Counted from the first letter of the stretch, positions 20,869-26,860 are shown. The stretch is 64,000 nt of DNA from Escherichia virus TH34 (MT446407.1); one strand, 5' to 3'. Numbers and translations are program-made. The notes: generated from the sequence alone by a model not told the origin.

Positions 20869-21010
20869 TATAGCCCTTGTGCTTATCAGAGGGCTATGTG
20901 AGGATGTTCCTCAATTAACTATAATCTCAATGCCATATGGCTCACCGCTAGGGCGAGACTTGTCTCAAACATCCGGTGATAGACTAAAACCTGTTTAATT
21001 TTCGAATGGC
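20869..21010. repeat. noncoding repeat element copy A (hairpin plus conserved downstream sequence)
   Basis: TATAGCCCTTGTGCTTATCAGAGGGCTATGTGAG hairpin and about 100 bp with patchy identity to the copy at 26715. Confidence 0.6.
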
Positions 21011-21281
21011 ATTCCGATATGTAGGGGTATGTATCGGTTTGGGATAGAGAACAATCTAGGGGTAGAGAGTTCTCGACAGTTTGTACAAGCGGAAGCCTTA
21101 ACGTGTAGGGCTTCCCTTTATATTAACTGGCAACCCTGCCTCCACTAACAAAGAGAGAACGTTATGAAGAAGTCAACCAAGCGTATGAACCGTCCTGAAC
21201 GTATGGATGCAGTAGCAAATGGCGCTCTGAAGATTGAGTCTGCCATGCTTCGTCTGACAACTAACATCCGTAAACGTCAAG

Positions 21282-21491
21282 GTGATTGGTTCTATGGCGG
21301 CTGAGCATGATGTTGGTATTCGTGAGATTATTCGTCTTGCGATAATTGATCACCCTAACAGTCGCAATGGCCTATTGTTACAGGTTTCTAAATGTCTTAA
21401 TTGTGACAAAGATGTGGCCAAAGAATTATTCTTTGCATTCATCTATAACGCAGATGATCGCTTCTTGAATAACAAGTTGCGTAGTGCTTAA
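21282..21491 (+). CDS. hypothetical small protein
   Basis: 69-aa ORF followed by a terminator. Confidence 0.35.
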   Translation: MIGSMAAEHDVGIREIIRLAIIDHPNSRNGLLLQVSKCLNCDKDVAKELFFAFIYNADDRFLNNKLRSA

Positions 21492-21495
21492 TAAG

Positions 21496-21527
21496 AGGCT
21501 GCCCTTCGGGGTGGCCTTTGTTGTTTT
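21496..21527 (+). terminator. rho-independent terminator
   Basis: ggctgccc-ttcg-gggtggcc followed by tttgttgtttt. Confidence 0.55.
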
Positions 21528-21570
21528 AATTAAGAGGTAGCTCTTACTTAAACTAATAAGAGAGGTTGAT

Positions 21571-21801
21571 ATGAAGATTAACGTTGTAAAGAAAGAAAAG
21601 AAATCTGCTACCTTTGCTGACTTAGCAATCGGCGACGTGTTTCAACTTGCCGATGGTATAAAAACTCTGATCTACATGCGTGTTTTCAATAGCCGTGCTA
21701 TCTGCCTTAACAATCCTACATGCCTCGAATCTACAACACGGATTAACAGCGATACTTCTATCATCCAGCTCCGTGCAGAGCTAATTGTCACCGAGGTTTG
21801 A
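21571..21801 (+). CDS. GDVF-family small protein, paralog 4
   Basis: 76 aa; FADLAIGDVFQL...LIYMRV. Confidence 0.5.
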   Translation: MKINVVKKEKKSATFADLAIGDVFQLADGIKTLIYMRVFNSRAICLNNPTCLESTTRINSDTSIIQLRAELIVTEV

Positions 21802-22012
21802 TGTGAACATTCGTTTAGTTCGTAAGCAAGATGGCAGACAGGTTGTGCTAGGTGAGATTGTTTGTGCTGCACATAACCTACTCCCTGAAAAAGATGAAAC
21901 TATCTGGTTTGATGGAGAGCAGCGCCGAGTATTGTCGGTTGTTAAATCTTTCGAGCCAAAGCGTAACAATGAAAAAGCTCTTACCTGTTGGTTTGAGGTT
22001 GATATTACATAG
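21785..22012 (+). CDS. hypothetical small protein
   Basis: 75-aa ORF. Confidence 0.35.
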   Translation: MSPRFDVNIRLVRKQDGRQVVLGEIVCAAHNLLPEKDETIWFDGEQRRVLSVVKSFEPKRNNEKALTCWFEVDIT

Positions 22013-22020
22013 AGGTTGAT

Positions 22021-22272
22021 ATGCGTAATCCATTTTTTGATCGTAAAGGTCGCACCGAAATTCTGATACCTTCTATCGGTGTGCCGGTTAAGTTTGGTGA
22101 GATGCGTGCTGGTGATTTCTTCATGGAATCAGGACATCTTTATCTGAAGATCGACCTTGAACATGCTGTTGAAATTCTTAGTGATAATAAGCCAATCATA
22201 GGAACTTCAATGTTCAGTACAAATCACACTGTATTTGTTGTCAACGTCCAGATTGAGATTAAAGCGCCATGA
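22021..22272 (+). CDS. GDVF-family small protein, paralog 5 (divergent)
   Basis: 83 aa; FGEMRAGDFFM...HLYLKIDL. Confidence 0.45.
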   Translation: MRNPFFDRKGRTEILIPSIGVPVKFGEMRAGDFFMESGHLYLKIDLEHAVEILSDNKPIIGTSMFSTNHTVFVVNVQIEIKAP

Positions 22273-22577
22273 CAATTTCATCTTCAACTCGCTGCAACCC
22301 TAATGTAGATATCCGTGCTCAAATGTCTAAGATGCCCGGTGTGACTCATTTAGAGTTCACCTACAGTCACTCGCGGTATGAACCGGGCTTTACTGTGGTA
22401 ATAAAATCCCCGTGGTTAACAATGACATTACTGTCGGATGAAGTTGAGAAGGCAGTGAATGGTATTAAATCAGGCGGGCTTAAACTTTTATCCACTGAAC
22501 TGGCTGATGAGTTCATGCCTCTTATCCGTAAAGGTGTGGCTAAAATGAATAAAATGATGGAGGCTGCAAAGCAATGA
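22269..22577 (+). CDS. hypothetical protein
   Basis: 102-aa ORF. Confidence 0.4.
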   Translation: MTISSSTRCNPNVDIRAQMSKMPGVTHLEFTYSHSRYEPGFTVVIKSPWLTMTLLSDEVEKAVNGIKSGGLKLLSTELADEFMPLIRKGVAKMNKMMEAAKQ

Positions 22578-24816: not shown

Positions 24817-25071
24817 ATGAAAGTTAACATGCCAGCAGGTAAAAATTCAATACCCCTCAGTGCTTTGCGACTTGGGGATTGCTTCATGTACCCTAACAGT
24901 GAAGATGGTGATTTGTACATCTTACTGTCTACCGAGTTCTCAACTCGACTCTGCATCAAGGGCGCGGATGAGCACAGACTTGTAGCCTGTCTTAACACGG
25001 GCAGAGCGACAGCACCTCGTAAAGATGTTGCTGTTATTCCTATTAAAGCTGAAGCAACTATTAAGGAATGA
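24817..25071 (+). CDS. GDVF-family small protein, paralog 6
   Basis: 84 aa; LSALRLGDCFMY...DLYILLS. Confidence 0.5.
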   Translation: MKVNMPAGKNSIPLSALRLGDCFMYPNSEDGDLYILLSTEFSTRLCIKGADEHRLVACLNTGRATAPRKDVAVIPIKAEATIKE

Positions 25072-25074
25072 GCA

Positions 25075-25341
25075 ATGACAATCCTTACTATCAATAAGAC
25101 CCATGTTGCAGACATTCCTGTGACTGTGAAGGATGTTCCTGAGGGTTCATTCTTTACCTTAAATGAAGACGATGTACAGATTGTATATCTTAAGGTAAAT
25201 AAATCTTCTAACAACGCTGAATACAACCGAGCGGTAGTTGTTAGCTCCGGATATGTCCGTCAACTGGCGCACAACCTTCGTGTACGTGTTCTCTACACAT
25301 CAGCAACTCTGGATTTAGTGGAGAAGATCAGTGAAACATAA
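25075..25341 (+). CDS. GDVF-family small protein, paralog 7 (divergent)
   Basis: 88 aa; VKDVPEGSFFTL...VYLKVN. Confidence 0.45.
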   Translation: MTILTINKTHVADIPVTVKDVPEGSFFTLNEDDVQIVYLKVNKSSNNAEYNRAVVVSSGYVRQLAHNLRVRVLYTSATLDLVEKISET

Positions 25342-25603
25342 GGATGGTTCAAAGTATGTATCACTATTGGATGCAGCCCTTCTCTGCACGTACTGGCTCC
25401 TTATTGTTATTGGGGTCGTGCTAGGGCTATGTGGTATCGTACAATTCTTTATGTACCTGCAAAGCGTGTTAGATATCACACTAGCTAACACTATAATCCT
25501 TGCAATTCTCGGTATTATTGCTTTCTGTGTGATTGTCTTCTTCGTTTGGTTATCTATGAACGACGACTCTACACACCTTCTATTGACAGGAGAAAATCAG
25601 TGA
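25331..25603 (+). CDS. small integral membrane protein (2 TM)
   Basis: 90 aa with two long hydrophobic helices. Confidence 0.45.
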   Translation: MKHKDGSKYVSLLDAALLCTYWLLIVIGVVLGLCGIVQFFMYLQSVLDITLANTIILAILGIIAFCVIVFFVWLSMNDDSTHLLLTGENQ

Positions 25604-25784
25604 GAAAACGTGCCTACTCTGAAGAAGAGATGGTTAGCCTGAAAGGCTTTGGTCAGCGACAGCCTGATGGCTCAGTTATCTGGTACATTAACGGACAGAA
25701 AAAGGCAAGTAAATAAGCCCTCTTCTCTCCTCCCTTTAGCTACTATGACGCCTCTCTTTTCGGCGCTGTTTTGGAGCTTCAAAA

Positions 25785-26198
25785 ATGTCTGGGAAATTCC
25801 CCAACGTAAGCAAGAAATTGGCTTACCTCACGTATAAAGAAAACATTGATCTTCTGGTCAAACTTTATCCGGCTTCATTCAACAAGCAATTCCCTCTTCC
25901 TTTGGAGCTTAACATCCATAAGGAAATCGCCCGCAAGACCGGTTGGTCAGCGGAGAAAACAAGCATGGTGCTCAACATCTGGACTACTCGTATGGAGTAT
26001 GTGATGATGGCATGTAGCACTGGTAAGCGCTTCAAGCTGCACTCTGTAGCTATGAAGATTCGTAGTCCTATTGACCCTGAGCCGATGGCTGGGTTCAGCA
26101 GTCGTCTGAAAGCTTTCCGTGATAAACGTCGTGTGGTGAAGTTCAAGCACGATTTCTCGTACAAGTTTGGATACGAAGCGTTCCAATTCGTTGTTTAA
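25785..26198 (+). CDS. hypothetical protein
   Basis: 137-aa ORF. Confidence 0.45.
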   Translation: MSGKFPNVSKKLAYLTYKENIDLLVKLYPASFNKQFPLPLELNIHKEIARKTGWSAEKTSMVLNIWTTRMEYVMMACSTGKRFKLHSVAMKIRSPIDPEPMAGFSSRLKAFRDKRRVVKFKHDFSYKFGYEAFQFVV

Positions 26199-26226
26199 TC
26201 TCTCTTTAATTTAAGGTAATAAAAAC

Positions 26227-26460
26227 ATGTCTAAAGTTAGCGCAATTGATGCCATCCGTCAGCCGTTCCAGTTTGAATCCAAGTCAACTCAGACCCAAAG
26301 TGAACCGCGTCAGATTCGTCTGGGTGGTACAGAGAAGTCTGTGTTTGATATTGCGAAAAACAAAAGCGTGACCATCGTCGAAGGCGGTGAGCTGGTTAAT
26401 GTTTCCCACCGTATCCGCACTGGCAAAACTGCCAAAGATCGTGCTAAGAAAGGTCTGTAA
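26227..26460 (+). CDS. hypothetical small basic protein
   Basis: 77 aa, RBS aaggtaataaaaac. Confidence 0.4.
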   Translation: MSKVSAIDAIRQPFQFESKSTQTQSEPRQIRLGGTEKSVFDIAKNKSVTIVEGGELVNVSHRIRTGKTAKDRAKKGL

Positions 26461-26711
26461 TGCAAATTGCTAATAAAACCCCTCCTGAATCAATTACCCA
26501 AGTAAAGGATATGTCACCGGGAGATGTATTTCGTGCAACGGAATATCCGGGGGAGTTCTTTATTCGAATCCCCTCAGCTTCTGTTGGTGGCATTGCTAAA
26601 CCTGTAACAGCAGTTCAGCTAAGTACAGGACATCTCTTCCGTTTAGAGATTGACATGGTTGTAATCCCTGTTCCAACAGCAATCCTTCGCTTTGACGGAG
26701 CCACAGAGTAA
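26460..26711 (+). CDS. GDVF-family small protein, paralog 8
   Basis: 83 aa; VKDMSPGDVFRA...FFIRIP. Confidence 0.5.
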   Translation: MQIANKTPPESITQVKDMSPGDVFRATEYPGEFFIRIPSASVGGIAKPVTAVQLSTGHLFRLEIDMVVIPVPTAILRFDGATE

Positions 26712-26714
26712 CAT

Positions 26715-26860
26715 TTATAGCCCTTGTGAGTATCAGAGGGCTATGTGAGCTATTCTGGCTCAACTAACCTAAACTTAATTTAATCTTACCCGTATGGGGC
26801 CGATGCTAGGGAGAGGAATAGTCCTCGAACATCCGTCGGATAGAATATTTTAAGAGCAGG
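26715..26860. repeat. noncoding repeat element copy B
   Basis: TATAGCCCTTGTGAGTATCAGAGGGCTATGTGAG hairpin and conserved downstream blocks (ctcaactaac, gctaggg, acatccg, gatag) matching copy A. Confidence 0.6.

Follow-up and report, generated by a model that had tools for sequence, protein, structure and literature searches.

What is the short noncoding sequence that occurs twice, each time behind a small gene, in Escherichia virus TH34 (MT446407.1), and was it copied together with these genes? The first-pass annotation of the window, the whole 64,000-nt stretch of DNA analyzed here, described two copies of a hairpin followed by patchy conserved blocks. Three roles were considered there, an RNA processing site, a protein-binding site, and a small structured RNA, and the repeat was also seen as a possible mark of the unit duplicated when the GDVF gene family expanded. 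Both hairpin copies are real: with up to three mismatches tolerated, the 34-nt hairpin TATAGCCCTTGTGNNTATCAGAGGGCTATGTGAG matches the + strand of the window only at 20869-20902 (copy A) and 26716-26749 (copy B), whereas each of 100 shuffles contained no match. The first of the two starts originally proposed, 20869, is correct; the second, 26715, is the start of a 35-nt repeat that includes the preceding T (starts 20868 and 26715, 94% identical, repeat family D8), and the 34-nt hairpin itself begins at 26716. The copies do lie directly 3' of related genes. The + strand genes at 20636-20860 and 26460-26711 end 8 and 4 nt before copies A and B, respectively, and their products are weak paralogs (27% identity, E = 2e-5) that share PHROGs 6570, 16423, and 7832. 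Copy A is followed by a homolog of phi32_112 (46 aa, 21164-21304), and copy B by a terminator, an RBS, and a 55-aa gene that starts at 26953. In the phages examined, the element always lies between small early ORFs of the + strand.

The hairpin is the first helix (P1) of a longer element that spans about 140 nt of the + (sense) strand, and the downstream blocks are conserved in both copies in identical order. P1 is followed by P2 and by a junction closed by P5 that contains hairpins P3 and P4. The block CTCAAyTAAC corresponds to the 3' arm of P2 and the 5' strand of P5, GCTAGGG and ACATCCG to the 5' and 3' sides of the P4 internal loop, and GATAG to the J4/5 linker. The P3 loop is a conserved RUAU. 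The P4 loop is a symmetric 7x7 internal loop, 5' CUAGGGN / 3' NAACAUC, whose specified letters are invariant in 33 of 33 copies, including one from a Flavobacterium MAG. On the 3' side of the core come one or two further hairpins, P6 and P7, whose loops are G-rich. P1 is not an intrinsic terminator, as already suspected from the missing T-tract: it is followed by GUGAG.. and P2, with no direct U run, and was not listed by the terminator scan. Independent MFE folds of the two window copies yielded the same architecture. Thus, both stretches almost certainly encode one folded RNA with the P1/P2/P5/P3/P4 anatomy, which in copy B ends in a terminator. We propose that both copies are transcribed from the + strand within the long early transcript of this phiEco32-like podophage.

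The core of copy A (20864-21004, + strand), comprising P1, P2, and the P5/P3/P4 junction, scores 91.3 bits with covariance model R1 (E = 4e-18), and the MFE fold of 20862-21130 has z = -3.7. P1 (20869-20898) coincides with the repeat and has arms UAUAGCCCUU and GAGGGCUAUG around a 10-nt loop; P2 (20900-20912) is GAGGA UGU UCCUC. Both are predicted by folding and by covariation, and covariation supports P3 (20932-20941, GCC AUAU GGC) and P4 (20942-20979). In P4, the outer stem UCACCG/CGGUGA and the inner stem GAGAC/GUCUC enclose the loop CUAGGGC / AAACAUC. The 5' strand of P5, AAUUAAC (20913-20919), is proposed, with weak support, to pair with GUUUAAUU (20993-21000). Downstream, an RNAalifold consensus of 10 A-type copies contains P6 (21014-21037), CCGAUAUGUA and UAUGUAUCGG around a GGGG tetraloop, with 10 of 10 pairs kept and with one-sided changes only. 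RNAalifold also predicts P7 (21047-21074), whose GGGG tetraloop is closed by CUA/UAG, with four compensatory pairs. The terminator scan found a hairpin at 21091-21115, GGAAGCC..GGCUUCC, with a weak U-rich tail CUUUAUAUUA (whole feature 21091-21125). Because the hairpin at this site has no U-tract in A copies of the MN05 and phiEco32 types, it is not a conserved terminator. A conserved leader, UAUAUYAACUGGCAA..UGCCUCCAYYAACAAAGAGAGA (21126-21163), leads to the start codon of the phi32_112 homolog.

Copy B (core 26711-26870, + strand) scores 125.4 bits with R1 (E = 2e-25). Its P1 (26716-26745) is identical to that of copy A at 32 of 34 nt. P2 (26747-26761, GAGCUA UUC UGGCUC), P3 (26789-26798, CCC GUAU GGG), and P4 (26800-26839) are predicted by folding and covariation; here, P4 has the outer stem CCGAUG/CGUCGG, the loop CUAGGGA / GAACAUC, and the inner stem GAGGA/UCCUC. 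The P5 strands are UAACCU (26765-26770) and its proposed partner AGGUUA (26858-26863). P6 (26869-26886, AGAUAU UGGGUG AUAUCU) is predicted by folding. The scan then found a strong terminator at 26908-26932, GGCUCUC UUAG GAGAGUC + CUUUUUU, whose hairpin (26908-26925) is intrinsic by definition, with a 7-bp stem, a 4-nt loop, and the CUUUUUU directly adjacent. It is annotated as a terminator in phages SU7, 4E8, and 7-11, and the sequence of its stem and U6 tract is conserved in E. coli and Salmonella phages. A hairpin with a U-tract (U6 except in pSal-SNUABM-01) lies 28-44 nt 3' of every B copy examined.

Covariation was assessed in an alignment of 33 distinct copies. Standard pairs occupy 92.7% of 1,265 pair cells, compared with 80.6% in shuffles, none of which (0 of 500) reached the observed value. 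Both-side changes were found at 23 of 45 pairs, and at 2-7 when partners were slid by 1-3 columns. The alignment was made by hand, and hairpin arms were registered by outside-in pairing, so that the percentage paired is inflated for P1 (98.5% in 33 copies), P2 (100%), P3 (100%), and inner P4; the outer stem of P4, exempt from this treatment, is 98.5% paired and compensatory at four of six pairs. Both-side changes occur at 9 of 12 pairs of P1, four pairs of P2 are compensatory (its arms being GAGG/CCUC, GAGCUA/UGGCUC, or GAGUUA/UAACUC depending on the lineage), and GC<->CG flips are seen at two of three pairs of P3. The UAAC/GUUA core of P5 is invariant apart from one compensatory change in L018, which supports this helix weakly. 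In the Flavobacterium-MAG copy, the loop letters are identical, and the stems are completely different yet complementary. Many of the pairs are U-G or G-U and would be C-A mismatches on the opposite strand; hence the fold belongs to the sense strand. Among the three roles first considered, a small structured RNA therefore fits best, given the covarying helices and the G-U pairs that restrict the fold to the + strand; a processing site or a protein-binding site is a possible role.

Beyond the window, the element occurs across phiEco32-like phages. Gordonclarkvirinae genomes carry two orthologous copies each, Salmonella phages of the Grimontviridae (the 7-11 group) carry one copy of the B type with 68-75% identity, and one divergent copy is present on an unrelated phage-like contig in the Flavobacterium MAG. 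No copies were found in 5,426 E. coli genomes. In Kuravirus phages, the B intergenic block is 85-87% identical, and its flanking genes are no longer aligned by megablast. At gathering score, the element matches none of the 4,227 families of Rfam 15, the single match in the window being a tRNA-Arg (23393-23465). In E-value mode, applied to both copies and L018, the core has no match even at E <= 10, riboswitch and ribozyme models included; the search returned sub-threshold noise and weak matches of TarB and STnc100 that cover the terminator part only. We found no description of this folded RNA in the literature searched. More than 100 deposited phage genomes can now have this motif added to their annotation, which leaves the region blank or miscalls it as "hypothetical protein".

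The suggestion that the element marks the unit copied during expansion of the GDVF family is not supported. A copies are orthologous across Gordonclarkvirinae, located between homologs of phi32_113 and phi32_112, and so are B copies, located between homologs of phi32_91 and phi32_90. Since the B type is also present in a separate family, the Grimontviridae, the duplication is old. The neighborhood varies as well: in Bas93, the B copy is downstream of a homolog of the window gene 26227-26460, and in SU10, it is downstream of a 465-nt "membrane protein" gene. The copy number stays at two regardless of the number of paralogs. The near-identical 34-nt hairpin is limited to close relatives of this phage, which points to local gene conversion or to retention of an old form; in B copies of Kuravirus and Salmonella phages, P1 is different and has a loop of the UUCG type. 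A and B are ancient paralogs, in which P1 alone was probably homogenized in this phage lineage.

The position of the element within the early operon bears on its function. In phage 7-11, in vivo validation covers just two sigma-70 early promoters, which lie at the extreme right of the genome (PMC8948821). This places the element and its terminator (~70.7 kb) midway in a long operon; the part downstream of the element encodes primase/helicase and DNA polymerase. On the + strand of the window, no gp36 promoter motif was found within one mismatch at 26.9-31.0 kb, with no exact match before 47407, and no sigma-70-like site was found from 26.9 kb to the end of the scan at 30 kb. The nearest strong sigma-70-like sites on this strand are at 12523 and 14968-15498, at least 5.4 kb upstream of copy A, and the two copies are 5-11 kb from the promoter-like sites at 14968-15498. 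Strong terminator-like sites at 17360 and in a cluster at 18647-18875 precede copy A; thus, it does not stand before the first terminator of the operon. The reading we prefer, with a probability of roughly 35%, is that the element, as a nascent RNA, controls terminator readthrough in cis. In the manner of HK022 put, Bacillus EAR, and Tn916 canT, such an RNA would fold behind RNA polymerase during synthesis and, acting in cis, would make the elongation complex pass the following terminator and possibly later ones, allowing expression of the essential early genes downstream in the operon. The invariant P4 loop may then serve to contact a conserved partner present in different bacterial phyla, for example RNA polymerase. 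Counting against this reading, besides the terminator-like sites ahead of copy A and the distance from the promoter-like sites, a canonical terminator is missing behind A-type copies of MN05-like and phiEco32-like phages. Simple transcription attenuation is another possible role of the terminator of copy B, as is 3'-end formation for a stable RNA.

The latter would be expected in a scenario almost as probable as cis readthrough, namely that the element is a stable trans-acting noncoding RNA cut from the early transcript, with a 5' end near P1 and a 3' end located at either the terminator or the last hairpin. Through the invariant loop and the repeated UAGGG(G) loops, it would bind or sequester a host or phage factor, which could be an RNA-binding protein, the ribosome, RNA polymerase, or a component of a defense system. 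UAGGG/AGGGG is indeed displayed repeatedly in loops (P4, the P6 and P7 tetraloops GGGG of A copies, UGGGUG in copy B, and GUAGGUGUA and CAGGGGUG in L018), a layout seen in protein-sponge RNAs. Copy B ends in a classic hairpin with U6, as many sRNAs do, two copies would increase the dose, and the variation of neighboring genes between lineages indicates that the RNA has no fixed partner gene. Circumstantially, Gordonclarkvirinae are reported to be highly resistant to the tested defense systems (PMC11990801). However, no conserved promoter precedes the element, the sequence upstream of RGURAC varying freely, and many A-type copies lack a terminator. A role in processing or stability of the polycistronic early mRNA, as a site resembling those of RNase III among T7 early genes or as a 3' barrier to exonucleases, where cutting or capping would set the levels of upstream and downstream genes, is unlikely. 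The intergenic position a few nucleotides after a stop codon, the several stable hairpins, and the irregular P4 with its internal loop are consistent with it, and a primer-extension stop at another conserved intergenic hairpin of 7-11 was interpreted as processing or reverse-transcriptase stalling (PMC8948821). Yet a simple barrier needs no invariant 14-nt loop from phages of Enterobacteria to a Flavobacterium-associated contig, just one or two sites serve ~60 early genes, and the P4 stems of 6 + 5 bp are short for RNase III, although ~18 stacked layers are possible if the 7x7 loop forms non-canonical pairs.

Other explanations have less in their favor than cis readthrough or a trans-acting RNA. 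It is doubtful that the element represents a new class of ligand-sensing riboswitch or of self-cleaving ribozyme, with the junction and the invariant loop as pocket or active site. Extremely conserved unpaired letters beside freely covarying stems are typical of aptamers and ribozymes, but this combination is common to many RNA classes and does not imply ligand binding. The order in copy B, an aptamer-like core followed by a terminator and then an RBS and a gene, is that of a transcriptional riboswitch, and a universal metabolite would account for conservation across host phyla. On the other hand, inspection by eye revealed no conserved pairing between core and terminator that would exclude the fold; the sole complementarity seen, 4-5 nt of AGAG/CUCU, is absent as a conserved feature from A copies. 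Core and terminator are separated by 28-44 nt containing another hairpin, the downstream genes vary between lineages, and no riboswitch or ribozyme model of Rfam scores on the core. Finally, conservation at the DNA level (a recombination hot spot, module boundary, origin, or protein-binding site) with an incidental RNA fold is disfavored as very improbable. Swaps of upstream genes between phages occur at the 5' edge of the conserved block, and P1 was apparently homogenized between the copies in this lineage; however, compensatory changes in five helices and one-strand G-U pairs are unexpected for a site in duplex DNA, and the stems of L018 are completely different with pairing kept.

A broader and tentative proposal is that the element founds a new class of phage RNA acting on a universal host machine, most likely as an RNA-only processive antiterminator with the CUAGGGN/NAACAUC loop as its contact to RNA polymerase, and otherwise as a new class of riboswitch or ribozyme. 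If so, phages of hosts as far apart as Enterobacteria and Flavobacteria would have this RNA in common. RNA-only antiterminators are rare, and one that folds unlike put, EAR, and canT would reveal how RNA can reprogram the polymerase. Coliphages of the phiEco32-like group are common and are therapy candidates, and the element may bear on the passage of the host polymerase through their early operons of 25-50 kb with several terminators. Should it instead be a trans-acting RNA, riboswitch, or ribozyme, it would form a new family with a well-defined invariant loop and a cross-phylum distribution.

Several known systems resemble the element in part. Like the Weinberg-type motifs of Rfam from phages and metagenomes, it is intergenic, supported by covariation, and endowed with invariant loops; unlike them, it falls outside all Rfam 15 families at gathering score. 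The RNase III hairpins of the T7 early region are likewise conserved, irregular hairpins with internal loops, located between genes of polycistronic early mRNA, and sites of this type comprise about two turns of largely double-stranded RNA, often interrupted by one internal loop; the element differs in its much shorter stems, multi-helix junction, and one or two sites per genome. The eps-associated RNA (EAR) of Bacillus, for which Rfam includes a model that, like the others, does not match the element, is located between genes inside its operon. EAR and canT of Tn916 are structured sense-strand RNAs of long operons that let polymerase pass internal intrinsic terminators, the canT region of ~450 nt acting on terminators within Tn916 (PMC11658703). 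The element shares with them the sense-strand structure and the long operon, and differs in hosts, sizes, folds, and their single-copy state. The put RNAs of HK022 are ~70 nt long, consist of two stem-loops 0-270 nt from PL or PR, and exist as diverged copies putL and putR; they suppress termination in cis by binding the zinc-binding domain of beta' with no need for a dedicated protein (PMC9378689), which would fit an element with variable neighboring genes. With five helices and a junction in a core of ~140 nt, the element stands apart from the described features of put, as it does in its distance of kilobases from the nearest strong promoter-like sites. Nevertheless, both systems have two diverged copies per phage with conserved structure and patchy identity between copies, and both are found upstream of terminators in early operons read by host RNA polymerase.

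The 34-nt hairpin string that the first-pass annotation flagged starts at 20869 and again at 26716; these are its only occurrences in the window, also with three mismatches allowed (shuffles gave 0). The start of the second occurrence had been placed at 26715, which is right for a 35-nt repeat with one extra T, but not for the 34-nt string itself. The patches of similarity reported downstream are all present in both copies, in identical order. They belong to a structured RNA element, with copy A at 20864-21004 and copy B at 26711-26870, both on the + strand. Each copy had also been said to follow a gene of the paralogous "GDVF" family. 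A small gene indeed has its stop codon a few bases before each copy (20636-20860 for A, 26460-26711 for B), and the products of these genes show weak paralogy (27% identity, E = 2e-5, PHROG families in common), but the gene upstream of B varies among phages. Thus, the element is not tied to this family.

Folded separately, copies A and B adopt an identical architecture. The repeat corresponds to P1, a 10-bp hairpin, with the short hairpin P2 directly on its 3' side and a single-stranded YUAAC after it. P3 is a 3-bp hairpin with an RUAU loop; in the P4 hairpin, a symmetric 7x7 internal loop (5' CUAGGG[C/A], 3' [A/G]AACAUC) separates an outer stem of 6 bp from an inner stem of 4-5 bp. The linker after P4 contains UAGA, and the GUUA of P5 is able to pair back with UAAC, closing a junction around P3 and P4. 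Among the patches seen initially, CTCAAyTAAC corresponds to P5 together with the P2 3' arm, GCTAGGG and ACATCCG are opposite sides of the P4 loop, and GATAG lies in the linker. Beyond the core, copy A contains two extra hairpins with GGGG tetraloops (P6 at 21014-21037 and P7 at 21047-21074) and, at 21091-21125, a terminator-like hairpin whose U-rich tail is weak, and copy B contains a hairpin with a UGGGUG loop (26869-26886) and a strong intrinsic terminator (26908-26932), the next gene starting at 26953.

Several local features vary between copies. Between P7 and the conserved UAUAUCAAC tail, the A copies of phiEco32 (L006:3230-3322), SU10 (L008:3763-3838), and some of the metagenome contigs have an insertion of about 60 nt in place of the last hairpin seen in copy A of the window. 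In the A type, GGRUGUU in P2 (5' arm plus loop; 20900-20912) is complementary over 7 nt to AACAUCC (20967-20973) on the 3' side of the P4 loop, which is invariant, and could form a tertiary or alternative pairing with it; the complementarity is absent in the B type and imperfect in L018, a phage-like contig from a Flavobacterium MAG. An RGURAC block just upstream of P1 (20855-20861 and 26706-26712) holds the stop codon in the window. It is kept in all Gordonclarkvirinae and Grimontviridae copies, even next to another upstream gene, and not in L018; its variants have TAA or TGA and AAC or AAT. The block resembles the internal YUAAC of P5 and could be an alternative partner for GUUA.

The reading of the repeat as a structured RNA is borne out by covariation as well as by the separate folds. 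MAFFT by itself did not align P2, P3, and P5 correctly between the types, so a scripted structure-guided alignment was used, in which copies were segmented on invariant anchors and gaps were entered as N. It contains 33 distinct copies: 12 A-type, 15 B-type, five from Salmonella-phage lineages, and the one from L018. Standard pairs occupy 92.7% of the cells, compared to 80.6% for shuffled columns (0 of 500 shuffles reach the observed value) and 33-46% for partners slid by 1-3 columns. Changes on both sides are observed for 23 of the 45 pairs (12.2 for shuffled columns, 2-7 for slid partners), and the covariation score is 0.259 (0.095 and at most 0.076, respectively). With the register of the hairpin arms set by pairing inwards from their base, a procedure that biases those helices towards pairing, paired cells amount to 98.5% in P1 (12 pairs, nine changed on both sides), 100% in P2 (10 pairs, four changed), P3 (three pairs, two changed, as GC<->CG flips), and the P4 inner stem (five pairs, one changed), 98.5% in the P4 outer stem (six pairs, four changed), and 70.1% in P5 (nine pairs, three changed). 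The P4 outer stem, placed solely by its position beside the invariant loop, covaries equally well. P5 is weakly supported because its four-pair core UAAC/GUUA is nearly invariant, with one compensatory change, in L018. Many pairs are U-G or G-U, mismatches on the complementary strand; hence the fold belongs to the sense RNA. At the P4 loop position beside the inner stem we observed A..G, C..A, and A..A and never C..G, a pattern that suggests non-canonical pairing of the sheared type and not an extension of the helix.

The window has its matches among phiEco32-like podophages (subfamily Gordonclarkvirinae), the nearest relatives being TH43, IME267, ECBP2, and Bas88 (94-99% identity). By BLAST, copy B matches 104 phage records, mostly at two places apiece, including phiEco32, SU10, NJ01, MN05, and the BASEL phages Bas86-94; none of the 5,426 complete E. 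coli genomes contains a copy. In Kuravirus phages, megablast aligns the intergenic block alone (query 256-499) and leaves the flanking genes unaligned, so the noncoding block is better conserved than its coding neighbours. The proposed search of related phages recovered the element both in Gordonclarkvirinae and, at 68-75% identity, in the separate family Grimontviridae (Salmonella phages 7-11, SE131, and pSal-SNUABM-01). The sole IMG/VR matches to a strict core pattern are contigs with the same A-type or B-type elements; looser patterns would be expected to bring in hundreds to thousands of chance matches. Pattern scans of genomes and metagenomes yielded metagenome and MAG contigs whose A- or B-type elements are nearly the same as in Kuravirus and 7-11, and one truly distant homolog, in the 48.7-kb L018 contig. 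Two further pattern matches (L025 and L040) are due to chance: their outer stem does not pair, and R1, a covariance model built from 20 copies, finds 0 copies there.

The L018 element lies between small same-strand ORFs, near a 446-aa ORF of a phage protein family with a homolog on an IMG/VR viral contig. It is the same as the coliphages in the letters of the P4 loop, in the loop of P3, and in the P6 loop region; its P1, P2, and both P4 stems have wholly different sequence with complementarity kept. An IMG/VR contig related to L018 contains, in an intergenic region (L041:2342-2554), a P1-like hairpin (AAUGCCUUC..GAGGGCAUU), a GCCUCC block, and a tail, AUUCUUAUUAAC, identical to L018 over 12 nt. 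The P3-P4 core is absent from this contig and thus behaves as a module, present or absent.

R1 recovers two copies in the window (125 and 91 bits; next best E = 0.78), two in each Gordonclarkvirinae locus spanning both positions (74-155 bits), and one in L018 (66 bits). In the whole 50-kb early region of 7-11 it finds one copy (112 bits) and no second. Phage 7-11 carries a homolog of phi32_112, the gene after copy A in coliphages, followed by 710 nt with no annotated gene (L043:42135-42845, record 82134-82844), where R1 finds nothing. At gathering score, Rfam 15 contains no family for the element and finds the tRNA alone; at E <= 10 the core has no match, and a weak resemblance to terminator-bearing sRNAs is confined to the B terminator. 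No description of these RNAs turned up in searches of the literature. By sequence and fold, the element is a new RNA family with no Rfam match.

In all Gordonclarkvirinae examined, A is located between the phi32_113 and phi32_112 homologs and B between those of phi32_91 and phi32_90. These orthologous positions, the presence of B alone in Grimontviridae, and the resemblance of the L018 3' half to the A type imply that the duplication is old, and the suggestion that it marks expansion of the gene family is unsupported. In Kuravirus and Salmonella phages, copy B has a shorter P1 hairpin, capped by a UUCG-type loop; P1 of B is nearly identical to P1 of A only in close relatives of this phage (SU7, ECBP2, and the metagenome contigs L029 and L030). 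The 34-nt identity is best explained by local gene conversion between otherwise diverged paralogs.

The window also contains a 90-nt unit repeated three times head-to-tail at its very start (86-355; 100%, 99%, and 76% identity), probably inside a gene. A unit of about 35 nt (ACCCATAAAGGC..TAAGGC..CCCA) occurs three times at 11346-11468, with spacing of 58 and 30 nt; this stretch looks noncoding and precedes the strong early promoter-like sites. Terminator-like hairpins at 51633-51666 and 54547-54580 (GCYACCTTCGGGTGGCTTTT) are 82% identical and 2.9 kb apart.

Both copies are within the early region, a long series of small + strand ORFs with tRNA-Arg(TCT) at 23393-23468 as its sole tRNA. The + strand has four sites that resemble sigma-70 promoters and are near consensus (12523, 14968, 15200, and 15498). 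Downstream of them are a strong terminator-like hairpin at 17360 and then a cluster of four such hairpins inside one 230-nt stretch (18647, 18675, 18777, and 18856). Since these precede copy A, the early operon encounters several terminators before reaching it. Another strong terminator-like hairpin (21494-21529; 11 pairs, UUCG loop, then GTTGTTTT) is only about 330 nt 3' of the copy A region, past two small genes (21164-21491).

Several roles for the element were rejected. The promoter motif of the phage sigma factor gp36 (tAATGTAtA) has no match with at most one mismatch in or beside either copy; such matches between the copies are at 22301 and 24262, and exact + strand matches are at 47407 and 53723. 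The string GTATGTATC in P6 agrees in only 6 of 9 letters, and P6 covaries as a hairpin. As for a sigma-70 promoter of its own, TTGACG 17-18 nt before TATAGC is found in copy B only, the -10 box is without the final T, and the sequence upstream of the element is unconserved between phages. Stop-codon readthrough was dismissed, copy A having 46 open codons past the stop and copy B an in-frame TAG three codons on, as was protein coding, with no + strand ORF of at least 40 aa in either intergenic region.

The element is a folded RNA of the sense strand that is under selection and lies inside the early operon. Its first-ranked function is a putative cis-acting control of terminator readthrough, with a probability of about 0.35. 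In its B form, the element is followed 28-44 nt downstream by a strong terminator that is conserved. For 7-11, the sigma-70 early promoters confirmed in vivo number only two, and both lie at the extreme right genome end (PMC8948821); its early genes are considered to make up a single long operon (PMC8948821; PMC4331800). There the element and terminator are about 18 kb into the operon with replication genes beyond, so polymerase must pass the terminator. On the + strand of the window, no gp36 motif with at most one mismatch occurs at 26.9-31.0 kb and no exact match before 47407, and a sigma-70 scan to 30 kb gave no + strand site past 26.9 kb. The invariant loop would contact a partner as conserved as RNA polymerase, which could explain why it is unchanged between phages of Proteobacteria and Bacteroidota. 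However, strong terminator-like sites already occur before copy A (17360; 18647-18875), and many A copies have no real terminator.

Almost as likely as cis readthrough is a processed trans-acting RNA: UAGGG(G) is displayed in several loops in the manner of a binding array, and the end of B resembles that of an sRNA. A role in processing or stability seems improbable, as does a new riboswitch or ribozyme, and a purely DNA-level role is very improbable given the strand-specific covariation. About 5.6 kb upstream of the element, pSal-SNUABM-01 has a gene (L010:5651-6379) whose annotation is RNA-binding protein of the ProQ/FinO family, a possible protein partner of the element; AEK82037 is at the equivalent position in 7-11.

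Terminator readthrough under RNA control can be compared with known systems. EAR is located inside its operon. The RNA-only antiterminator canT promotes readthrough of several terminators within Tn916 (PMC11658703). Another RNA-only antiterminator, put, is found in early operons as two diverged copies per phage (PMC9378689). The fold of put is unrelated to that of the element, which counts against the readthrough reading, but its occurrence as two diverged copies in early operons is a trait that fits the element.
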